Of a stretch of 64,000 nt of DNA, positions 5,185-39,104 are shown piece after piece; the stretch's first letter is position 1, and the number at the start of each line of letters is the position of its first letter. The notes under the pieces were generated by a model. It saw only the letters and a program-made list of their open reading frames with translations. It did not search any database and was not told the origin of the DNA. Origin of the DNA: Candidatus Omnitrophota bacterium. Lineage in GTDB: Bacteria; Omnitrophota; Gorgyraeia; 2-01-FULL-45-10. Location: positions 8,884 to 72,883 of the forward strand of contig JBAYMS010000001.1 of assembly GCA_041663425.1 (NCBI GenBank). Reading direction: 5' to 3'. The position numbers and the translations under genes are program-made.

Positions 5185-5423
5185 ATTAAATAAAAAAATC
5201 CCCGCCTGTGCCGTGTGAACTTAATAATTTTGATCCCGATTCTCATCAGGTGGGAGCCCTCGAACAAACGCCAAAGCGTTTAACCAGTTAGGCCCCCGAT
5301 TCTAAATTATTGGGTCAAAATTTCTAATTCAATCACGCGCACCGCAGGGATATTTCTATTCCTAAATAAAGTATATCATACGATTACCGCAAAGGCAAAT
5401 TACGCCCGGGCGGTGCGATGGTT

Positions 5424-28532: not shown

Positions 28533-28595
28533 TTCTACAGTTTGAGTCGGGAATTGTGGAGTGGAGACAAAAATTTAATTTTATTTAAGGTGTGT

Positions 28596-30455
28596 ATGTG
28601 TGGAATAGTAGGATACATAGGAACAAAAAGTGCGCAGGAAGTGCTGCTGAAGGGATTGAGCCGTCTGGAATACAGGGGCTACGATTCCTCCGGCGTAGCT
28701 ATTATTGAATCTAAGAAGCTAAACCTGGTAAAACGACAGGGCAAGCTGCGCATATTGGCCGACGTCTTAAAAGAAGGTCCTTCCAAGGGTACGGTTGGTA
28801 TAGGTCATACGCGCTGGGCAACACACGGTATTCCCAATGACATAAATGCGCACCCCCATTTAGACTGCACAGGCAAGATAGCCGTAGTTCATAACGGCAT
28901 TGTCGAAAATTATCTCGAGCTCAAAAAAATCCTGATGAAAGAAGGGCACAAATTTATATCGGAAACCGATACCGAAATAATTGCGCACCTGATCGAAAAA
29001 TATTATAACGGACATCTAGAAGCCGCAGTTTTAAAAGCAATCAAACTGCTCAAAGGTTCTTATGCGATAGCTGTTGTGCATTCTGGGGAGCCGGATAAGA
29101 TAGTCGGAGCAAGGTGTGATTCACCACTTATCATAGGTCTGGGCGACGGGGAAAATTTTCTGGCAAGCGATGTTCCCGCCGTGCTTGATTATACGAAAGA
29201 CGTCATATATCTCGATAACCATGAGCTTATCATTCTGACCAAAACCGGCGTCACCATCAAAGATTATGACGGACGAGTTTTATCGAAAAAACCGTCTAAA
29301 ATAAAATGGGATATTAAACAGGCGGAAAAAGCCGGCCATGAACATTTTATGCTCAAAGAGATTTATGAGCAGGGCGACATCCTCAGAAATATACTCGACG
29401 AAAGACTGCATGGCGGCAAGGTGGTTTTTGAAGAGCTTGCCATAGAAGCCGCAGCATTCAAACATTTTAAAAAAATAGCTCTGGTAGCATGCGGTACCGC
29501 TTATCATGCGGGACTGACCGGTAAATACATGATAGAGGAATATGTCAGGATACCATGCTGGGTGGATACCTCGAGTGAATTTCGATACAGAGATCCCATT
29601 GTTGACAAGGAAACGCTCTTCATAGTTATTTCGCAGTCGGGAGAGACAGCAGATTCTCTGGCGGCGCTCCGGGAGGCAAAAAGGCGCGGGGCGACAACCT
29701 TGGGCATATGTAATGCCGTCGGAAGTTCTATAGCGAGGGAATCGGACGGAGTGATTTATACTCATGCGGGTCCGGAGATAGCGGTGGCGTCCACAAAAGC
29801 CTATACTGCACAGCTGGCGATACTTTATTTGTTGACGCTTTATATGGGCACATTGCGCGGCAATATATCGAAGACGAAACTGGAAAAGCTTATTGCAGAA
29901 TTCCGAAGAGCACCCGATCTTATGGACGAGCTCATAAGCGAATATAAAGATCCGTATAATAATATTGCAGCTTATGCGAGTGAATTTAAACGATATTACT
30001 ACGAAAAACACAATAAATCCTATTTCCTGTATCTCGGGCGTAACATAAATTATCCCAATGCGCTCGAAGGAGCTCTGAAGCTGAAGGAAATATCCTACAT
30101 CAGCGCTGAGGGGTATCCTGCCGGCGAGATGAAACACGGGCCGATAGCTCTGATAGACGAAAATCCATGGGTTGTCTGCATTGCCACACAGGCAAAGACT
30201 TATGACAAGATGTTATCCAATATCCAGGAGATAAAAGCGCGCAGCGGCATAGTAATAGCGCTTGTGACTGAAGGCGACAAAGAGATACAGCACCATAATG
30301 TCAACTATGTTATAGAGGTGCCGAAGATAGACGAGCTGTTCAGCCCGCTTTTGGTGGTGATACCGCTCCAGCTGCTTGCTTATTATGTCGCGAAAAAGTT
30401 CGGTTATGATATAGATCAGCCGCGCAATCTTGCAAAATCGGTAACAGTCGAATAA
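28596..30455 (+). CDS. glmS: Glutamine--fructose-6-phosphate aminotransferase. The ORF track starts at 28542; the canonical start is MCGIVGY at 28596.
   Basis: N-terminal Cys nucleophile MCGIVGYIG, a GATase2 domain, and two SIS domains ending in the ...SVTVE terminus. Confidence 0.9.
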   Translation: MCGIVGYIGTKSAQEVLLKGLSRLEYRGYDSSGVAIIESKKLNLVKRQGKLRILADVLKEGPSKGTVGIGHTRWATHGIPNDINAHPHLDCTGKIAVVHNGIVENYLELKKILMKEGHKFISETDTEIIAHLIEKYYNGHLEAAVLKAIKLLKGSYAIAVVHSGEPDKIVGARCDSPLIIGLGDGENFLASDVPAVLDYTKDVIYLDNHELIILTKTGVTIKDYDGRVLSKKPSKIKWDIKQAEKAGHEHFMLKEIYEQGDILRNILDERLHGGKVVFEELAIEAAAFKHFKKIALVACGTAYHAGLTGKYMIEEYVRIPCWVDTSSEFRYRDPIVDKETLFIVISQSGETADSLAALREAKRRGATTLGICNAVGSSIARESDGVIYTHAGPEIAVASTKAYTAQLAILYLLTLYMGTLRGNISKTKLEKLIAEFRRAPDLMDELISEYKDPYNNIAAYASEFKRYYYEKHNKSYFLYLGRNINYPNALEGALKLKEISYISAEGYPAGEMKHGPIALIDENPWVVCIATQAKTYDKMLSNIQEIKARSGIVIALVTEGDKEIQHHNVNYVIEVPKIDELFSPLLVVIPLQLLAYYVAKKFGYDIDQPRNLAKSVTVE

Positions 30456-30477
30456 TTTCGACGCAGAGCCTAAAATT

Positions 30478-31140
30478 ATGAACGGCACATTATATGTGGT
30501 TTCTACTCCCATAGGTAATCTGGAAGACATAACCCTGCGTGCCATAGAAACATTGAAATCGGTTGACCTTATCGCTGCCGAAGATACCCGCCACACAAAA
30601 ATACTGCTCGACAGATATGAAATAAGAACTCCGACGACAAGTTACTTCGAATATAATAAGATCCAGAAGACAGATTATCTTATAAAAGTTCTGCAGGAAG
30701 GTAAATCTGTTGCCCTGGTCTCTGATGCGGGCACGCCCGGCATATCGGATCCGGGGTATAGGGTTATCCATCTTTGTATAGAAAACGGAATATCGGTAGT
30801 GCCGATCCCGGGAGCCTCGGGGCTCATAACAGCTCTTACTATTTCAGGGAAACCTACTGATAAATTTACATTTGAAGGATTTTTATCAAATAAGGGTGCT
30901 AGAAGGAAAAATCAGCTTAAGAAATTGCACGAAGAGGGCAGAACGGCCGTTTTATATGAATCGCCGCACAGGATAGTGAAGATGCTGGAGGATGCCCTGG
31001 AAGTTTACGGCGATGTGGATATTGTTCTGGCCAGAGAGCTTACAAAGAAATTTGAGGAAGTGCGGCGCGAAAAGGTTTCCGCAACGATCGCGCACTTTAC
31101 ATCTCACGCGCCAAAAGGCGAATTTATTGTAATTATTTAA
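30478..31140 (+). CDS. rsmI: 16S rRNA (cytidine1402-2'-O)-methyltransferase RsmI-like tetrapyrrole-methylase-fold protein.
   Basis: GTLYVVSTPIGNLEDITLRAIETLKSVDLIAAEDTRHT is the RsmI N-terminal signature. The protein is shorter than usual (220 aa). Confidence 0.75.
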   Translation: MNGTLYVVSTPIGNLEDITLRAIETLKSVDLIAAEDTRHTKILLDRYEIRTPTTSYFEYNKIQKTDYLIKVLQEGKSVALVSDAGTPGISDPGYRVIHLCIENGISVVPIPGASGLITALTISGKPTDKFTFEGFLSNKGARRKNQLKKLHEEGRTAVLYESPHRIVKMLEDALEVYGDVDIVLARELTKKFEEVRREKVSATIAHFTSHAPKGEFIVII

Positions 31141-31207
31141 GCCCAAAATTACATTGACAAAATGCTTAAAGCGTGATACAATTACCACAATAAAGTTACC
31201 TTTTAAT

Positions 31208-31299
31208 GCCGGTCCAGAGAGTCCGGAAAAGGAGAAGTAAGGATGAATACCAGACCCACTTATCTGTTTTGTAAAAATGATAGGTGGGATTTTTATTTT
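31208..31299 (+). promoter_or_regulatory. PyrR-dependent transcription attenuator in the pyr leader (binding loop plus terminator).
   Basis: CCGG-UCCAGAGAGU-CCGG at about 31209..31226 matches the PyrR binding-loop consensus (UCCAGAGAGG). Downstream is a 10-bp hairpin cccacttatc/gataggtggg followed by ATTTTTATTTT (31255..31299). Confidence 0.55.
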
Positions 31300-31310
31300 A
31301 AGGCGGCCAT

Positions 31311-31859
31311 ATGACGTTCAAAGAAAAGACCAAAATACTCGATAAAGACGATATAGACAGATCCCTTCAGAGGATAGCCCACGAAATAGTAGAAAAAATA
31401 AAGGCCACCGAGGAAATAGCGATAATAGGCATAAAGAACCGCGGAGCGTATTTGGGCCAGCGGCTTGCTGAAAAAATAGGAAAGATAACCGGCTCGAAAA
31501 TACCGGTCGGTGCGCTTGATATCACACTATACAGAGACGATCTTACTGAGGCTTCAAGTCAGCCCATAGTCCATGCCACAGAAATAAATTTTGATATCGA
31601 GGGAAAAAAAATAATATTGGTAGACGATGTCCTGTATACCGGCAGGACGATAAGGTGTGCTCTGGATGCATTGATAGATTTTGGAAGGCCCGCCCAGATA
31701 CAGCTTGCCGTATTGGTTGACAGAGGCCACAGAGAGCTTCCGATAAGGGCAGATTATGTAGGTAAAAATGTCCCGACGTCTCTTAAAGAGGTCGTGGAAG
31801 TTAAGTTATCAGAGACCGAAGGCAAAGACGAAGTAGTGCTTTGCGAAAAAGATAGGTAA
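31311..31859 (+). CDS. pyrR: Bifunctional pyrimidine operon regulator / uracil phosphoribosyltransferase.
   Basis: PRTase motif [12 protein letters not shown] and PyrR family layout. First gene of the pyr cluster. Confidence 0.9.
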
Positions 31860-31863
31860 AGGG

Positions 31864-32808
31864 ATGGCAGAGAAGAAGATAGTCTGGACGAAGAAAGACC
31901 TTCTGGGGCTCGAATATCTTTCCAAAGAAGAGATCGAGCTCATTTTATATACAGCCGGAAGCTTTAAAGAAGTTACAACACGCCAGATAAAGAAAGTGCC
32001 CGCCCTGCGCGGCAAAACGGTGGTCAATTTATTCTATGAGCCCTCAACTAGAACGCGCACGTCGTTTGAACTTGCCGCAAAGCGCCTCTCAGCCGATGTC
32101 GTGAATATAGAGATAGAGACCTCCAGTGTGCGGAAAGGCGAGACCCTGATAGATACGGGGCGCAATATCGAAGCGCTGAAGATAGATATAATAGTGGTTC
32201 GGCACAACTGCAGCGGCGCTCCGATGATACTGGCGCGCAATGTGCAGGCGCGCGTGGTGAATGCCGGCGATGGATGGCATGAACATCCCACGCAGGCACT
32301 CCTGGATATGTTCACCCTGAAATCAAAACTCGGAAGAATCGAAGATCTGAAGGTAAGCATAATAGGCGACATAGCTCACTCACGTGTGGCACGGTCAAAT
32401 ATATGGGGGCTTACAAAGCTGGGCGCTAAAGTGACCGTATGCGCGCCGAAGCTTTTGGTTCCGGAAGGAATAGAAAAGATGGGCGTTAAGGTAACGACCG
32501 ACATAAGCGAAGCGCTCGAAGGGGCTGACGCGATAAATGTGCTTCGCATGCAATTTGAACGGGACGGTGCCATGGCATTTCCTTCGAAGCTGGAATATTT
32601 CAAGCAATATGGCATTACGGCCGAGCGTCTTTCGAAATGCAAAAAAGATATAGTTGTAATGCACCCGGGGCCGATAAACAGGGGCGTGGAGATGTCGAGC
32701 GAGGTAGCTGACGGGAAGAACTCGGTAATACTTGAGCAGGTGACCAACGGTATAGCGGTGAGGATGGCGGTCCTGTATCTGGTGGCTCACACAAAAGAGG
32801 CAGCATGA
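31864..32808 (+). CDS. pyrB: Aspartate carbamoyltransferase catalytic subunit.
   Basis: STRTR carbamoyl-phosphate motif, an HPTQ-type motif, and a HPGP-like region (VMHPGP). Confidence 0.9.
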   Translation: MAEKKIVWTKKDLLGLEYLSKEEIELILYTAGSFKEVTTRQIKKVPALRGKTVVNLFYEPSTRTRTSFELAAKRLSADVVNIEIETSSVRKGETLIDTGRNIEALKIDIIVVRHNCSGAPMILARNVQARVVNAGDGWHEHPTQALLDMFTLKSKLGRIEDLKVSIIGDIAHSRVARSNIWGLTKLGAKVTVCAPKLLVPEGIEKMGVKVTTDISEALEGADAINVLRMQFERDGAMAFPSKLEYFKQYGITAERLSKCKKDIVVMHPGPINRGVEMSSEVADGKNSVILEQVTNGIAVRMAVLYLVAHTKEAA

Positions 32809-34094
32809 GTAAACAATATCTTATAAAAGACGGAAGAGTGGTCGATCCCGCCAATAAAATAAACGATATTTTCGATATATTAATATCCGACGGGAAAATA
32901 GAAAAAACCGGCAAAAATTTAAATATTAAATCAGGCGAGACTATCGATGCTAAAGGAAAGATAGTTGCGCCAGGATTTATAGATATGCATGTTCATTTGC
33001 GAGAGCCCGGGCGGGAAGATGAAGAGACGGTCAGAACCGGATCCAGGGCGGCAGTCCACGGAGGATTTACCAGCATCCTTTGTATGCCAAATACCGATCC
33101 GGCTATTGATAATCCGGCAGTCGTGAAAAACCTGAAAGATATAATCGCCAAAGATGCCGTCTGCAACGTTTTTATAGCCGGCGCTGTTACCGAAGGCCGC
33201 ACGGGTAAAAAACTTACCGATTTTGATAACTTAAAATCCGCGGGAGTCATAGCGCTCTCCGATGACGGATCTCCGACGCCGGATAGTATGATCGACGAAG
33301 CTCTTAAGCGTTCAATGAAAGCAGGGCTTCTGCTCACAGAGCATTGTGAAGTGCCGCGGCTATCGCAGGGCGGTGTTATGAATAAAGGATTTATTTCAAC
33401 GAAGCTTGGCCTGAAAGGCATTTCCGCGCAATCAGAATATGAAGCGGTAAAACGCAATATCGACATCGCTGAAAAATTATCCGCGCGCATCCATATTGCC
33501 CACGTCAGCTGTAAAGAGTCGGTAGAGTTTATAAGGCAAGCTAAAAAGAAAGGCGTTCAGGTTACTACGGAGACAGCGCCGCATTACTTTGCGTTGAGTG
33601 AAGAATGCTGCGCTACATATGACACAAACACCAAGATCAACCCGCCTTTGCGGAGCATGGCGGATGTTGACGCGATAAAGGCAGGGCTTGCGGACGGCAC
33701 CATAGATGTGATAGCGACAGATCATGCACCCCACACAGATTCAGAAAAAGATGTCGAGTTTGATTATGCGCCGTTCGGGAAAATAGGCCTTGAAAGCGCT
33801 TTACCTGTCAGCGTTATGGAGCTTGTCGATAAGAAGATCTTATCATGGGATGAGCTTATAAAAAAGTTGTCAGCCAATCCTGCTAAAATACTGGGCGTGC
33901 CAGGCGGTAGATTAAGTAAAGGCGATCCTGCGGATATAACCATAATAGATCCCGATAAAGAATATATATTGAAAAAAGATATTATAGAATCGAAATCAAA
34001 AAATTCACCCTTCATAGGCTGGAAGGTGAAAGGGAGAATATCCACGGTTTTTGTAAAAGGCACAATAGTAATGAAGGATGAAATAATGTTATAA
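32805..34094 (+). CDS. pyrC: Dihydroorotase.
   Basis: Metal-binding DMHVHLREPG and the amidohydrolase fold. Overlaps the pyrB stop. Confidence 0.9.
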   Translation: MSKQYLIKDGRVVDPANKINDIFDILISDGKIEKTGKNLNIKSGETIDAKGKIVAPGFIDMHVHLREPGREDEETVRTGSRAAVHGGFTSILCMPNTDPAIDNPAVVKNLKDIIAKDAVCNVFIAGAVTEGRTGKKLTDFDNLKSAGVIALSDDGSPTPDSMIDEALKRSMKAGLLLTEHCEVPRLSQGGVMNKGFISTKLGLKGISAQSEYEAVKRNIDIAEKLSARIHIAHVSCKESVEFIRQAKKKGVQVTTETAPHYFALSEECCATYDTNTKINPPLRSMADVDAIKAGLADGTIDVIATDHAPHTDSEKDVEFDYAPFGKIGLESALPVSVMELVDKKILSWDELIKKLSANPAKILGVPGGRLSKGDPADITIIDPDKEYILKKDIIESKSKNSPFIGWKVKGRISTVFVKGTIVMKDEIML

Positions 34095-34105
34095 GAGGGA
34101 CAGCA

Positions 34106-35341
34106 ATGCCATTTATCGCCGACTTCCATATACACTCAAAATACTCACGCGCGACGGCAAAAGATATGGATCTGGCCTCGCTGGCAAAATGGGCGAAGAT
34201 AAAAGGCGTTGCAATGCTGGGCACCGGCGATTTTACCCACCCTTCGTGGTTTTCGGAACTTAAAAATAAATTAAAAGAAACAGATGCACCGGGCGTTTAT
34301 GAATACGAAGGCATATTATTCATACTGACGGCTGAAGTTTCAAATATATATTTTAAGGCAGGCAGGACCAGGAAAGTACACAATATAATATTTGCCCCAT
34401 CGCTTAATGCGGCTGAGGAAATAACTTCCGCAGTATCGGAATACGGCGAACTTTCCAGCGACGGCAGGCCGATCCTGAGTGTAGAATGCGACAGGATGGT
34501 CAGGCTCCTTACCAGGATAGACCCGAAGATTTTCTTTGTCCCCGCTCATGCGTGGACGCCGCACTTCAGTGTGTTCGGTTCGAATTCCGGATTTGACCTG
34601 CCCGAAGAGTGTTACGAAGACCAGACGGACAAAATATTTTCGATAGAGACCGGGTTGTCGAGCGATCCGGCCATGAACTGGCGCTGGTCCAGGCTCGACA
34701 GGTTTTGCATGACGTCCAACTCTGATGCGCATTCTCCGTCGAAAATAGGGCGCGAGGCGAATGTATTTAAAGATAAAATAAATTACACTGAGCTCATTGA
34801 TATACTTAAGAAAAAAGATAAGGCGCGGTTCCTTTACACGATAGAATTTTTTCCTGAAGAAGGAAAATACCACTGGGACGGGCACAGGGACTGCAAGGCA
34901 AGGTTTCCGCCGCGGGAAGCGATGAAGTTAAATAATATTTGCCCTGTCTGCGGCAAGAAGGTTACAATAGGTGTTATGCACAGGCTCGAAGGCCTGGCAG
35001 ACAGAAGCGAAGGATATGCCGATGCGGCGAGCCCTTCTTATAAAAGATTGGTGCCGCTGGCGGAGATCATAGGAAGTGCTTTTGGTGTAGGTACGGAATC
35101 CCTGAAGGTAGAAAGGGAATATTTCCGGTTAATTAAAAATTTCGGAACAGAATTTAATATGCTCCTGTATATGAACGAAAAGGAGCTTCGCGAAAGTCTC
35201 CCGGAGAGGATCGCCAGAGGAATTATAAACGTCCGCAGCGGCGATATCGAAATAAATCCGGGCTACGATGGAGAATACGGGAAAGTAACGGTTTTCAAAG
35301 AAGGCGACACGGCTCAGGATAAGCAGATGAGCTTCTTATAG
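34106..35341 (+). CDS. PHP-domain endonuclease Q (EndoQ)-like protein with a C-terminal zinc finger.
   Basis: DFHIHSKYSRAT, GTGDFTHPSW, PAHAWTP, LSSDPA, SNSDAHSP and IGREANVF motifs plus CPVCGKK...HRLEGLADRSE and RLVPLAEIIG. These align with my memory of archaeal EndoQ, which cleaves 5' of deaminated bases. Confidence 0.65.
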   Translation: MPFIADFHIHSKYSRATAKDMDLASLAKWAKIKGVAMLGTGDFTHPSWFSELKNKLKETDAPGVYEYEGILFILTAEVSNIYFKAGRTRKVHNIIFAPSLNAAEEITSAVSEYGELSSDGRPILSVECDRMVRLLTRIDPKIFFVPAHAWTPHFSVFGSNSGFDLPEECYEDQTDKIFSIETGLSSDPAMNWRWSRLDRFCMTSNSDAHSPSKIGREANVFKDKINYTELIDILKKKDKARFLYTIEFFPEEGKYHWDGHRDCKARFPPREAMKLNNICPVCGKKVTIGVMHRLEGLADRSEGYADAASPSYKRLVPLAEIIGSAFGVGTESLKVEREYFRLIKNFGTEFNMLLYMNEKELRESLPERIARGIINVRSGDIEINPGYDGEYGKVTVFKEGDTAQDKQMSFL

Positions 35342-35347
35342 GAAAAC

Positions 35348-36151
35348 ATGAAACAGCTGAACGAAAAAATACTGGATAATAAAAAGATGGGTGCAGGGTT
35401 CTGGCGCATGCGCATCTGTTCTGCGTATCTCGCCGGAAAGGCAAAGCCGGGGCAGTTTGTAGAGGTGAGGTGTTCGGCAGGCTCGGATCCGCTTTTGCGC
35501 AGGCCTTTGGGCATTCACAGGATCATAAAAGGCGGCGCGGAACTTTTATATGAAGTGGTCGGCAAAGGTACGGACATACTCTCTCAGAAGAAGAAGGGCG
35601 AGGAACTCGACCTGATAGGGCCCCTCGGAAACGGTTTTGATGTCCCCGGCCGTAAAGGGATAGCGATACTTGTTGCCGGCGGTAACGGAGTGGCTCCGTT
35701 ATTCGCGCTTGCGGAGAAAATTGAAAAGCTGGGATGGAAAGTTAAAGTGCTGATAGGTGCGCGCCACAATACGCATATTTTATGCGAAAAAGAATTTAAA
35801 TCGCTCGGGGCAGAGGTTATCGTTGCCACAGAGGATGGGTCAAAAGGACACAAAGGCCTTGTGACGCATCTACTGAAAACGGAGCTGGCAGGGGCACAAA
35901 CCGGTAAAGTAGTGAATGTATATGCCTGCGGGCCCATGGGGATGCTTAAGGCTGTCGCAAATATAGCGCGCGATTACAGAGCGCCGTGTCAGGTTTCGCT
36001 CGAGGAACGCATGGCATGCGGTGTAGGCGTGTGTCTGGGCTGCCCTGTTAAAATAAAAATAGGGCACGGGATAAACGAAGCCGGCTATACATATAAGATG
36101 GTTTGTAAAGACGGGCCTGTATTCGATGCAGAAGAAGTTTTCTGGGAATAA
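35348..36151 (+). CDS. pyrK: Dihydroorotate dehydrogenase electron-transfer subunit.
   Basis: FAD/NAD-binding ferredoxin-reductase fold, with a C-terminal 2Fe-2S Cys cluster (CGVGVCLGCPV). Confidence 0.85.
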   Translation: MKQLNEKILDNKKMGAGFWRMRICSAYLAGKAKPGQFVEVRCSAGSDPLLRRPLGIHRIIKGGAELLYEVVGKGTDILSQKKKGEELDLIGPLGNGFDVPGRKGIAILVAGGNGVAPLFALAEKIEKLGWKVKVLIGARHNTHILCEKEFKSLGAEVIVATEDGSKGHKGLVTHLLKTELAGAQTGKVVNVYACGPMGMLKAVANIARDYRAPCQVSLEERMACGVGVCLGCPVKIKIGHGINEAGYTYKMVCKDGPVFDAEEVFWE

Positions 36152-37079
36152 AAATATGAAACCTGATCTTCAAGTAAAAATAGGAACGCTGAAACTTAAA
36201 AACCCGGTCATGGTAGCGTCGGGGACATTCGGCGCTGAATACCGGGAGCTTGTCGATGTCGGTAAGCTGGGTGCGATAGTCACCAAGACCATTACGCTAA
36301 ACGGTCGCGCCGGCAATCCTGCCCCGAGAGTGGCGGAGGCATCTTCAGGTATGCTCAATTCGATAGGACTGGAAAACAAAGGGCTGGAAGATTTTATAAA
36401 CAAAAAAATACCGGCTTTTCCGGGCGGTGATACCAAACTTATTGTAAGTATTGCCGGAGACACCGAAGGTGAATTTACGCGCATGGTCGGAGAGCTCGAC
36501 AAAGTGAAGAAGGTGAGCGCTATAGAGATCAACCTCTCCTGCCCAAACGTAAAGCACGGCAGCAGGACCGGACTTACTGCCCAGGATGAGGACGCATCAT
36601 ACAGTGTAGTGCGCGCTGTGCGCAGGGCGACGGGACTGCCGATCATAGCGAAGCTTACTCCGAACGTAACCGATATAGCGAAGATAGCTGTGGCTGTGGA
36701 GAAGGCCGGTGCCGACGCTATCCTCGCAGTTAATACATTTGCCGCTATGGCTATCGATATCGAGACCCGCAGGCCTAAGCTCGGGAACGTGACGGGCGGT
36801 TTAAGCGGTCCGGCGATAAAACCTATAGCGCTGAAGATGATATGGGACATTTACAATAAAGTAGAAATCCCTATAATAGGTGTGGGCGGTATCATGAATT
36901 ATAAAGATGCCGTTGAATTTATGCTCTGCGGCGCGGCAGCGATACAGGTCGGCACGGCTACATTTGTAAATCCAAACACAGCGATCGAGATCATAAAAGG
37001 ACTTAATAAATACTGCAGTGATAAAAATATAAAAAATATGTCCGAGCTCGTCGGAAATATTAATATAGGCCGCTTGTAG
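36126..37079 (+). CDS. pyrD: Dihydroorotate dehydrogenase catalytic subunit (class 1B). The likely true start is MKPDLQVKI at about 36156.
   Basis: MVASGTFG, catalytic NLSCPN and the GVGGI motifs of PyrD. Confidence 0.85.
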   Translation: MQKKFSGNKNMKPDLQVKIGTLKLKNPVMVASGTFGAEYRELVDVGKLGAIVTKTITLNGRAGNPAPRVAEASSGMLNSIGLENKGLEDFINKKIPAFPGGDTKLIVSIAGDTEGEFTRMVGELDKVKKVSAIEINLSCPNVKHGSRTGLTAQDEDASYSVVRAVRRATGLPIIAKLTPNVTDIAKIAVAVEKAGADAILAVNTFAAMAIDIETRRPKLGNVTGGLSGPAIKPIALKMIWDIYNKVEIPIIGVGGIMNYKDAVEFMLCGAAAIQVGTATFVNPNTAIEIIKGLNKYCSDKNIKNMSELVGNINIGRL

Positions 37080-37087
37080 AACTCGCG

Positions 37088-37122
37088 GCACTTAGCCACA
37101 CCGTGGCTTAATAAACTTGGAG
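37088..37122 (+). repeat. Copy A of a conserved ~35-nt hairpin motif, immediately upstream of the pyrF start.
   Basis: gcacttagccacaccgtggcttaataaacttggag contains a perfect AGCCAC/GTGGCT stem. Related copies occur at 55046..55134. GGAG lies 5 nt upstream of the pyrF ATG. Confidence 0.4.
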
Positions 37123-37126
37123 CATT

Positions 37127-37840
37127 ATGACATCCATTAATAAATTGATAGTAGCGCTCGATGTAAATACCGAAGAAAAAGCGGTCGCCCTGGCTGAGAC
37201 GCTGAAAAATGAAGTGAGATTTCTCAAGATAGGCCTTGAGTTATTTTCAGCATGCGGGCCGAAGATAGTGGAGAGGATAAAAGAGACCGGCTGCGATGTA
37301 TTCCTCGACCTGAAATTTCATGACATTCCGACAACAGTTATGAAAGCCGCAGCAGCGGTAACTGCGCTCGAGCCTTTCATGTTCAATGTGCACGCGCTGG
37401 GCGGATATGAGATGATGAAACGGACTGCCGAGGCTGTAGCGAGCGAGACCTCAAGGCTCGAAATAGTAAAACCGAAAGTTCTGGCGGTGACGATACTTAC
37501 CAGCATGGACGAAAAGGCGATGAGAGAGATAGGGCTATCCTTAAATCCGAAAGACGCGGTTCTGAAATTGGCTGCTCTGGCGAAAAAAGCGGGCTTAGAC
37601 GGAGTGGTGGCTTCACCGTCCGAGACGAAAGCCATAAGGGAAGAGCTGGGCGAGGATTTTATTATAGTGACTCCGGGTGTGCGTCCGGAATGGGCCGCAG
37701 TAAATGATCAGAAGAGGGTCGCCACACCGAAAGCGGCAATAAAAGACGGCGCAAATTATATAGTTGTCGGCCGTCCGATAACGGAATATAAAGATCCTGC
37801 CGAAGCGGCCAGGCAGATACGAAAAGAGATGGAGATATGA
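37127..37840 (+). CDS. pyrF: Orotidine 5'-phosphate decarboxylase.
   Basis: LIVALDV...FLDLKFHDIPTT and the (I/V)VGR C-terminal motif. Confidence 0.9.
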   Translation: MTSINKLIVALDVNTEEKAVALAETLKNEVRFLKIGLELFSACGPKIVERIKETGCDVFLDLKFHDIPTTVMKAAAAVTALEPFMFNVHALGGYEMMKRTAEAVASETSRLEIVKPKVLAVTILTSMDEKAMREIGLSLNPKDAVLKLAALAKKAGLDGVVASPSETKAIREELGEDFIIVTPGVRPEWAAVNDQKRVATPKAAIKDGANYIVVGRPITEYKDPAEAARQIRKEMEI

Positions 37841-38406
37841 ACGAGAAAGAAGTTTTGGATGTATTTAATAAAAAGAATGCGTTGTTAACAGGCCATTTCA
37901 AATTATCGAGCGGCCTTCACAGTAAAAATTATCTGCAATGCGCCCTGATATTGCAGTATCCGGACATCGCGGAAGAGCTTTCGAAAGAGATAGCGAAAAG
38001 AGTTTCAAAAGAAAATATAGATGTGGTTGTAGGACCAGCTCTGGGCGGGGTAACATTTGCTTATGAGATCGCGAGAGCACTTAAAGTGCGCGGGCTATTT
38101 ACGGAACGACAGGAAGGTGCGATGGTGCTGCGCCGCGGTTTTACTATATCGCCGGGTGAGAAAGTTCTTGTGGCAGAAGACGTTATAACAACGGGCGGTT
38201 CTACTAAAGAAGTCATCGAAGTTGTAAAAAAGCTGGGCGGTATCGTGGTCGGAGTAGCGAGCATAATAGACAGAAGCTCAGAGCCTGTGGACTTCGGCGT
38301 GCCGTTTACGGCTCTTGCCAGGATAAAGGTTGAGACTTTCAAAGAAGAAGATTGTCCTCTCTGTAAGGCAAAAACCCCGATAACAAAGCCCGGCTCGAGA
38401 AAATAA
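37837..38406 (+). CDS. pyrE: Orotate phosphoribosyltransferase.
   Basis: PRTase motif VLVAEDVITTGGS. Overlaps pyrF and ends the operon. Confidence 0.9.
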   Translation: MNEKEVLDVFNKKNALLTGHFKLSSGLHSKNYLQCALILQYPDIAEELSKEIAKRVSKENIDVVVGPALGGVTFAYEIARALKVRGLFTERQEGAMVLRRGFTISPGEKVLVAEDVITTGGSTKEVIEVVKKLGGIVVGVASIIDRSSEPVDFGVPFTALARIKVETFKEEDCPLCKAKTPITKPGSRK

Positions 38407-38466
38407 GCATAAATTCTAAATTATTGCGTCCGGACGGGCGGTTATGGTATTATATTTTCCACTTTA

Positions 38467-38541
38467 GGGCAAGTAGCTCAATGGCGGAGCAATCGGTTTA
38501 CATCCGATAGGTTACAGGTTCGACCCCTGTCTTGCCCACCA
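38467..38541 (+). tRNA. tRNA-Val (anticodon UAC).
   Basis: GGGCAAGTAGCTCAATGGCGGAGCAATCGGTTTACATCCGAT...GGTTCGACCCCTGTCTTGCCCACCA. Confidence 0.85.
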
Positions 38542-38592
38542 CTTCTCTGAATAACCCAAGCCATGCAGTCCCGAGGAGATGTGGTTTGACTG

Positions 38593-38859
38593 ATGCGACG
38601 AGGGACACTTAACCCTATGAGCAAGTGGACTGTTTATATTCTTAAATGTAATGACGCTTCTTTATATACCGGCATTACGACCGATCTTGAAAAACGGGTA
38701 AAAAAGCACAATGAAGGCCGTGCTGCGAAGTACACGAGAGCAAAAAGGCCTGTTTCAGTGGTTTATACTGAAGGCGCTGTTAATTCATCCTCAGCTAAAA
38801 AGAGAGAAGCCGAGATAAAAAAATTATCTCGACAAGCTAAGGTAGAGCTGATAAAATAA
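38593..38859 (+). CDS. GIY-YIG nuclease family protein (UPF0213-like). The likely start is MSKWTVYIL at about 38617.
   Basis: WTVYILKCNDASLYTGITTDLEKRVKKHNEG..AKYTRAKRPV is the GIY-YIG core. The gene is sandwiched between two tRNA genes. Confidence 0.7.
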   Translation: MRRGTLNPMSKWTVYILKCNDASLYTGITTDLEKRVKKHNEGRAAKYTRAKRPVSVVYTEGAVNSSSAKKREAEIKKLSRQAKVELIK

Positions 38860-38873
38860 GCTTCCAGATTTCC

Positions 38874-38950
38874 GGGGACGTAGTTCAGTTGGTTAGAACG
38901 TCAGATTGTCGATCTGAAGGTCGCGGGTTCGACCCCCGTCGTCCCCGCCA
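38874..38950 (+). tRNA. tRNA-Asp (anticodon GUC).
   Basis: GGGGACGTAGTTCAGTTGGTTAGAACGTCAGATTGTCGATCTGA...GGTTCGACCCCCGTCGTCCCCGCCA. Confidence 0.85.
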
Positions 38951-39104
38951 TATAGAAACAGTAACTGGTTTAATACCAGATGATTAGCCGTAACAAGTTG
39001 TAAATTCAACTGGTTACGGCTATTTTATTTATCTTGCGTGTTTTGGAAATTAGCGCTATTCTTGGAAGTGATGGCACAAAAATGGCACAGTCATAGGGCT
39101 CCGA

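Follow-up and report, generated by a model that had tools for sequence, protein, structure and literature searches.

An endonuclease Q gene inside a pyrimidine operon of Candidatus Omnitrophota with a predicted PyrR-type leader

A window of 64,000 nt (the whole stretch of DNA that was analysed) from a contig of Candidatus Omnitrophota carries a pyrimidine biosynthesis (pyr) operon with the gene order pyrR-pyrB-pyrC-endoQ-pyrK-pyrD-pyrF-pyrE. Coordinates below are window positions unless a locus handle (L) is given. The open reading frame (ORF) X in the fourth place, hereafter endoQ, is described here together with its setting (Table 1). A first-pass annotation of this DNA had reported an EndoQ-like PHP ORF between pyrC and pyrK with spacings of 11 and 6 nt; its position was exact, Pfam and NCBIfam confirmed the flanking genes, and both spacings were reproduced from the coordinates. 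The 11-nt gap after the pyrC stop (34094) contains GAGGG, which is Shine-Dalgarno-like, and the endoQ stop (35341) lies 6 nt before the ATG of pyrK (35348), with a Shine-Dalgarno-like purine run in both gaps. Cistrons adjoining each other in the operon overlap or almost touch. The GC content of endoQ, overall and at third codon positions (GC3), was similar to that of its neighbour genes, and most of the pyr genes scored above the curated equivalog cut-offs of NCBIfam.

By sequence comparison and structure prediction, ORF X is homologous to endonuclease Q over its full length and belongs to the bacterial type. When it was compared with the PDB sequences by phmmer, endonuclease Q of Pyrococcus furiosus (5zb8, 7k30-7k33) was the only match, with a best E of 3.5e-55 and about 36% identity between query residues 5-399 and chain residues 5-385. 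The nearest database relatives were proteins from metagenome-assembled genomes (MAGs) of Candidatus Omnitrophota, which were 65-89% identical and carried the NCBI name "endonuclease Q family protein" (Pfam PF27218). All motifs listed in the first-pass annotation (ADFHIHSKYS, LGTGDF, PAHAWTP, SNSDAHSP, CPVC and PLAEII) were present in the translation, and its assignment to EndoQ was backed by sequence, catalytic residues and predicted fold alike.

In the P. furiosus enzyme, zinc at the PHP site is bound by H8, H10, E76, H84, H139 and D193, with H195 close by, and the lesion pocket consists of H139, T142, E167, L168, G169, L170, N191 and D193 (PMC5961232, the 2018 paper on the apo structure, from which the roles of the pocket residues were taken). 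The metal ligands were identical in the window protein (H8, H10, E77, H92, H148, D207 and H209 for P. furiosus H8, H10, E76, H84, H139, D193 and H195), and metal ligands and catalytic residues were invariant in 83 aligned bacterial-type homologs. Seven of the eight pocket residues were identical as well: the side chains of T151, E181 and L184 were retained, H148 and D207 also line the pocket, and G183 and N205, which stand for main-chain contacts to the base, were kept. The exception was T182 in place of L168, which contacts the base through its main chain (PMC5961232). These metal-ligand and pocket positions were invariant in all 18 pyr-linked homologs of the survey described below. In the alignment to Pyrococcus EndoQ no catalytic residue or zinc ligand was lost, the first zinc ligand being His for Cys.

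An AlphaFold2 (AF2) model of the protein was obtained with a mean predicted local distance difference test score (pLDDT) of 86.4 and a predicted template modelling score (pTM) of 0.87. When it was set against known structures by Foldseek, 5zb8 and 7k30 took the top PDB ranks with template modelling (TM) scores of 0.81-0.87 over about 400 columns, and the next PDB matches after EndoQ were bare PHP barrels with TM of at most 0.34.

The zinc finger of P. furiosus EndoQ is formed by C249, C252, C268 and C271 (PMC5961232). In the window protein the first finger ligand is His, not the archaeal Cys, and this His was invariant in 83 of 83 bacterial-type sequences aligned; as judged from these alignments it is no defect of the window gene, and H260, C263, C279 and C282 are taken as putative zinc ligands. 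The protein ends in QMSFL, on a tail (residues 403-411) with pLDDT below 50 in the AF2 model, and a motif Q[LM]x[FL][FL] was present at the extreme C-terminus in 120 of 120 close homologs. That EndoQ homologs of bacteria carry clamp motifs was noted before by Shiraishi et al. 2016 (PMC4858679); archaeal EndoQ is coupled to PCNA by a PCNA-interacting protein (PIP) box, of which the bacterial clamp motif is the counterpart (PMC4858679). The QMSFL tail fits the beta-clamp-binding consensus and probably tethers the protein to the beta sliding clamp, which suggests an action coupled to replication.

The cluster representatives closest to the window protein beyond the Omnitrophota clade showed 45-52% identity and were mostly 1000-1200 aa in length. 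Three of three long relatives scanned (P0123, P0128 and P0133) were fusions of EndoQ with a UvrD-type helicase, which argues for DNA as the substrate, and 71 of the 118 long representatives had a QxxLF motif behind their EndoQ module. In two further relatives (P0121 and P0125), LAGLIDADG-containing insertions lay within the EndoQ domain, and in one of them an intein splicing domain was detected. Because homology, residues, fold, clamp motif and helicase fusions all point the same way, a DNA-lesion nuclease is by far the most likely function of the predicted protein. As an enzyme, EndoQ of the window is an ordinary member of its family for which no new mechanism is needed, and since its relatives are already annotated as EndoQ family, only the operon context is new.

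Upstream of the operon, the rsmI-pyrR intergenic gap of 170 nt contains a predicted sigma-70-type promoter, a putative PyrR-binding hairpin and a terminator, the last two forming a predicted transcription attenuator of PyrR type. The promoter matched the consensus hexamers at 11 of 12 positions and was the top promoter-like site in 30400-39000, and the minimum free energy (MFE) fold of the leader showed both hairpins. The same layout of promoter, hairpin and terminator was found 5' of pyrR in related loci, with a TTGACA-type promoter in the same place. The PyrR-binding hairpin could be recognised in 15 Omnitrophota loci, where the stem sequences vary and the pairing, as judged from individual folds, is kept; an exact search for CCAGAGAG was too strict for the related leaders, which were revealed by inspection of the 200 nt upstream of pyrR. 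Inside the operon, promoter-like sites were as numerous as in shuffled sequence, and no convincing terminator was seen on the + strand. From the leader elements, the touching cistrons and this lack of a convincing internal terminator, we infer a single transcript from 31183 onward that includes endoQ and is gated by PyrR and UMP/UTP (uridine mono- and triphosphate), as in Bacillus. The first-pass annotation had proposed co-regulation of endoQ with de novo pyrimidine supply. The promoter and attenuator upstream of pyrR spoke for this proposal, as did the endoQ junctions, which are too short to hold further signals, and as a statement about regulation it is kept here in conditional form.

The conservation of this arrangement was surveyed in one genome per species (GTDB r232) by a scan with the family alignment, in which at least 600 stretches matched; the best 80 loci, many of them on short contigs, were examined with the pyr proteins of the window as tblastn queries. 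The two contigs with 73% and 68% identical homologs had the same order pyrC-endoQ-pyrK-pyrD-pyrF-pyrE, with glmS-rsmI-pyrR-pyrB before pyrC-endoQ where they reach upstream. Of the 21 loci with the highest similarity to the query, 16 had pyrR-pyrB-pyrC directly 5' of endoQ, so that the insertion for which the first-pass annotation had suggested a search is present in many related pyr operons. These 16 linked loci were labelled Omnitrophota, except five "uncultured Planctomycetia" and one "uncultured bacterium". The pyrC-endoQ linkage was thus seen at two metagenome places (L001 and L002) and in 16 species-level genome loci, and it extended to EndoQ identities of 51-55% and PyrC identities of 44-56%; the spacing of endoQ was tight or overlapping in many loci. 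In the other 59 of the 80 loci, no pyr gene was found by tblastn within the available sequence around endoQ. They belonged to WOR-3, Patescibacteria, Nitrospirota, Thermodesulfobacteriota, Aminicenantes, Bipolaricaulota, DPANN archaea and others, and a stand-alone homolog of 51% identity lay in another context, between genes for a CCA-adding enzyme and HIT on one side and lpxK on the other. In a neighbour-joining (NJ) tree, built without bootstrap support, the pyr-linked endoQ genes formed one clade. The position after pyrC is old: most of the Omnitrophota lineages sampled share it, the linked genes form an NJ clade and the composition of endoQ is like that of its neighbours. It thus goes back to an ancestor of much of the phylum and did not arise by a recent accident; the linkage appears to be vertically inherited. 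Recent horizontal insertion of endoQ was considered and rejected on account of the conserved synteny and composition.

The segment behind endoQ varied among the sister operons, where inserts were identified by Pfam, NCBIfam and ARAGORN, and 3.5-6 kb lay between endoQ and pyrK in several lineages. A tRNA-Arg(CCG) gene was located directly 3' of endoQ on the same strand in six of six sister-clade loci checked, and may represent either the border of a transcript or a site of old insertion. After it came a protein of SLOG cluster 4 (TIGR00725), LOG-like and possibly nucleotide-processing. In the stretch from endoQ to pyrK, sister lineages also had either carA plus carB or a carB of half length, which in L014, L010 and L017 encoded about 520-534 aa. 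Between carB and pyrK lay fpg/mutM (TIGR00577, 278.7 against a cut-off of 203.3), which in these lineages is the second base-damage repair gene of the operon. No homolog of carA, carB, fpg or the SLOG gene was found in the 64-kb window by tblastn. The compact operon form of the window and the form with carAB each occurred on two separate branches of the tree, which suggests parallel loss of the middle segment. Throughout, endoQ stayed beside pyrC while carAB, fpg, the SLOG gene and tRNA-Arg varied, and it was the most persistent gene of the operon outside the pyr set.

Table 1. Location of endoQ, its sequence features, the surrounding genes and signals, and inserts found in related operons.
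Feature	Position	Strand	Remarks
endoQ (ORF X)	34106..35341	+	ATG start, 411 aa; bacterial-type endonuclease Q, predicted; PHP nuclease domain, zinc-binding domain, C-terminal helical domain
Zinc finger (putative)	34883..34951	+	H260-x2-C263 ... C279-x2-C282 (P. furiosus C249, C252, C268, C271)
QMSFL, C-terminal motif of beta-clamp-binding type	35324..35338	+	On low-confidence (disordered) tail
Promoter, sigma-70 type (predicted)	31154..31182	+	TTGACA, 17 nt, TACAAT; TG before the -10 hexamer
PyrR-type transcription attenuator (predicted)	31195..31296	+	PyrR-binding hairpin, terminator and U-run
PyrR-binding hairpin	31199-31232	+	Putative; loop UCCAGAGAG
Terminator hairpin	31255-31288	+	GC-rich; U-run at 31290-31299
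glmS	28542-30455		Upstream of the pyr genes; Pfam and NCBIfam
rsmI	30478-31140		Upstream of pyrR; Pfam and NCBIfam
pyrR	31311..31859	+	Bifunctional regulator / uracil phosphoribosyltransferase; NCBIfam NF003549 (equivalog), 258 bits, cut-off 138
pyrB	31864..32808	+	Aspartate carbamoyltransferase; NF002032, 410 bits, cut-off 263
pyrC	32805..34094	+	Dihydroorotase; TIGR00857 (subfamily-domain model), 424 bits, cut-off 279
pyrK	35348..36151	+	Dihydroorotate dehydrogenase electron-transfer subunit; Pfam PF10418 and PF00175; NCBIfam equivalogs NF000798 / NF000799, about 198 bits, under cut-offs 219 / 314
pyrD	36126..37079	+	Dihydroorotate dehydrogenase, class 1B catalytic subunit; NF005574, 391 bits, cut-off 269
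pyrF	37127..37840	+	Orotidine monophosphate (OMP) decarboxylase; NF001273, 290 bits, cut-off 193
pyrE	37837..38406	+	Orotate phosphoribosyltransferase; TIGR01367, 234 bits, cut-off 150
tRNA-Val(TAC)	38467-38541	+	3' of the pyr operon, same strand
tRNA-Asp(GTC)	38874-38950	+	3' of the pyr operon, same strand
6S RNA gene	5195-5353	-	RF00013, 77.5 bits
tRNA-Arg(CCG)	L010:11092-11164; L014:11311-11382		Also in L015, L017, L023, L025
fpg/mutM	L025:12197-12994; L014:13486-14283		Also in L010, L017, L018, L023
SLOG cluster-4 / TIGR00725 gene	L025:7297-7797; L014:11415-11870		After tRNA-Arg
152-aa ORF	L015:9065-9523		Between pyrC and endoQ; similar sequence in the gap at L021:3696-4159
tRNA-Val and tRNA-Asp	L017:17015-17221		After the pyr operon of a distant Omnitrophota locus

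Besides these, a 6S RNA gene was identified elsewhere in the window. The pyr operon is followed on the same strand by genes of tRNA-Val and tRNA-Asp, which also come after the pyr operon in a distant Omnitrophota locus (L017). The interval from pyrE to tRNA-Val showed no intrinsic terminator, and transcription of the operon might therefore continue into the tRNA genes.

Taken together, endoQ would be one cistron of an eight-gene pyr operon read from the promoter and the PyrR/UMP-responsive attenuator in front of pyrR. The level of EndoQ would then go up when pyrimidine nucleotides are scarce and down when they are plentiful, since under PyrR/UMP gating of the operon it should track pyrimidine limitation. 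The protein would be recruited by the beta sliding clamp through its QMSFL tail and would flip a deaminated base (uracil, hypoxanthine or xanthine) or an abasic (AP) site into its rigid pocket. As a zinc-dependent PHP-domain nuclease, it would place a nick immediately 5' of deoxyuridine (dU), deoxyinosine (dI), deoxyxanthosine (dX) or the AP site. That the window gene is co-transcribed with the pyr genes and encodes an active EndoQ is considered probable, going by its sequence and the structural model.

Several observations weigh against this account. The end-to-end match of the protein to NCBIfam TIGR00375, a narrow hypothetical-equivalog model, reached 187.5 bits, below the cut-off of 326.6, and W144 and K320 of the P. 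furiosus enzyme are replaced by His and Leu. The leader aligned over the full length of Rfam RF00515 with 47.3 bits (E 8.4e-06 in a 231-nt search), below the gathering score of 54, and a search of the whole window at Rfam gathering thresholds reported no PyrR element; a score just under the threshold suggests that the model under-detects the attenuators of Omnitrophota. A nested subclade of Omnitrophota-type EndoQ (L004, L011, L024 and L035) has lost the pyrC linkage. In L010 and L014, the gap between pyrC and endoQ was larger and contained promoter-like hexamers, and with the tRNA-Arg in six loci this points to a possible division of the unit there, with endoQ perhaps read from a promoter of its own; the degree of coupling between endoQ and the pyr genes may thus differ between lineages. 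Some lineages carried passengers between endoQ and pyrK, namely genes for a PEMT-like methyltransferase, a flavodoxin-like protein and YjbQ, and in some LolA-like ORFs or a 152-aa ORF stood upstream of endoQ. The latter gave no NCBIfam hit, and in L015 we take its sequence to resemble a Mut7-C/PIN-like nuclease domain. With such unrelated passengers in the operon, membership is weak evidence for a role related to pyrimidines.

How the gene came to be kept there can be explained in more than one way. A housekeeping EndoQ might have come to lie 3' of pyrC early in the ancestry of Omnitrophota and been carried since as a neutral passenger, compact genomes keeping their gene order and tolerating mixed operons, so that co-transcription would be without physiological logic; we give this an even chance. 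It agrees with the unrelated genes in the same operon (PEMT-like, LolA-like and flavodoxin-like genes, YjbQ, tRNA-Arg and the 152-aa ORF), with the lineages which lost the linkage yet kept endoQ, and with the synteny of glmS-rsmI upstream and of tRNA-Val and tRNA-Asp downstream, by which the conservation may be one of general synteny. However, endoQ was the most persistent non-pyr gene, fixed after pyrC while carAB, fpg and the SLOG gene were gained or lost, and a second base-damage gene, fpg, in the sister operons is more than random passengers would give. In another account, EndoQ, and Fpg in the sisters, would have been placed under PyrR so that lesion repair scales with de novo pyrimidine flux or growth, the misincorporation of deoxyuridine triphosphate (dUTP) and the demand for replication-associated repair peaking when flux and growth are high. 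Such adaptive coupling draws on linkage kept across lineages at about 50% protein identity, tight or overlapping spacing in many loci, a conserved PyrR attenuator, two different base-lesion enzymes in one operon, the retention of endoQ when the middle of the operon was lost, and a clamp-binding-type tail suggestive of replication-coupled action. It is nevertheless regarded as doubtful: its physiological rationale is speculative, since PyrR de-represses at pyrimidine scarcity, when dUTP is not obviously raised, unrelated passengers share the operon, and in some lineages possible internal promoters and a tRNA gene part endoQ from the downstream genes.

It could also be asked whether the protein acts on DNA at all, and not as a PHP phosphoesterase on a pyrimidine nucleotide or intermediate, or as a structural partner of the pyr enzymes, either of which would account for its place in the operon. 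PHP domains do include nucleotide phosphoesterases, weak Foldseek matches to 2anu, 3e0f and 2yb1 were obtained, endoQ sits in the slot that carAB occupies in Bacillus-type operons, and K320 of P. furiosus is not conserved. Against these stand the complete three-domain EndoQ architecture including the zinc finger and the C-terminal helical DNA-binding domain (TM 0.84-0.87), the conserved lesion pocket, the UvrD fusions of close relatives and the clamp-type tail, and other PHP enzymes matched the barrel only, with TM of 0.25-0.34; this alternative is highly improbable. A pyrC-like barrel partner or a nucleotide phosphoesterase was considered for ORF X in view of Foldseek matches to dihydroorotases and PHP phosphoesterases and was rejected, these matches having TM of at most 0.34 and low probability. 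For endoQ as a lesion nuclease gene of the pyr operon, we lean towards a genuine shared transcript, the dedicated functional logic of which would be weak or absent. The furthest-reaching proposal, in which a UMP-sensing PyrR attenuator controls base-lesion repair by EndoQ, and by Fpg in the sisters, together with pyrimidine synthesis and so tunes lesion removal to nucleotide status, is put forward as unlikely.

EndoQ has long been seen as an archaeal enzyme with few bacterial homologs. The stretches matched in the species-representative genomes, at least 600 in number, came from Omnitrophota, Patescibacteria, WOR-3, Nitrospirota, Thermodesulfobacteriota, DPANN archaea and others. Literature searches on EndoQ with pyrimidine operons, on TIGR00375/MJ0043/yqxK and, by title and abstract, on pyrimidine in Omnitrophota, with subscription literature only partly covered, yielded no description of the pyr-operon context. 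Within that coverage the presence of endoQ in a PyrR-type pyr operon across a phylum is apparently undescribed. Within one phylum the gene has a fixed address in a pyrimidine operon predicted to be PyrR-gated, which in sister lineages is shared by fpg. If the co-transcription is functional, repair capacity would be set by a nucleotide-pool sensor, a direct regulatory link from nucleotide-pool sensing to DNA repair of a kind not described so far, and a testable handle would be at hand on how uncultured small-genome bacteria deal with uracil in DNA. Otherwise, the locus would illustrate clearly how passenger genes can persist over long times in a biosynthetic operon.

Among known systems, P. furiosus EndoQ (5zb8, and 7k30-7k33 with dU/dI DNA) has the three-domain architecture and the PHP zinc ligands in common with the window protein, in which the pocket residues corresponding to T142, E167, G169, L170 and N191 are kept. 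The window protein differs from it by an identity of about 36%, the His as first finger ligand, the changes W144 to His, L168 to Thr and K320 to Leu, and a beta-clamp-type QMSFL in place of the PIP box. P. furiosus is a hyperthermophilic archaeon, whereas the host of the window is represented by a bacterial MAG of mesophilic type with the gene in a pyr operon. The EndoQ of Bacillus pumilus / B. subtilis (Shiraishi et al. 2017) is also a bacterial member of the family and, as far as the account in PMC5961232 goes, resembles the archaeal enzyme in cutting at dU, dI and AP sites. A pyr-operon context is not mentioned in the EndoQ papers PMC5961232 and PMC4858679. The EndoQ-UvrD fusions of uncultured bacteria, the N-terminal 400 aa of which are the part related to EndoQ, share with the window protein the His-Cys-Cys-Cys finger and have QxxLF after the EndoQ module; in contrast to them, the window protein stands alone, with no helicase gene adjacent.

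The operon itself can be compared with that of Bacillus type, the order of which is pyrR-pyrP-pyrB-pyrC-pyrAA-pyrAB-pyrK-pyrD-pyrF-pyrE. Both have the same order of the pyr genes and a PyrR protein, and a leader with a PyrR-binding hairpin and a terminator is predicted for the operon of the window as well. This operon differs in having a single predicted attenuator, neither pyrP nor carAB, and endoQ in the slot after pyrC, to which the sister lineages of Omnitrophota add fpg, the SLOG protein and tRNA-Arg.

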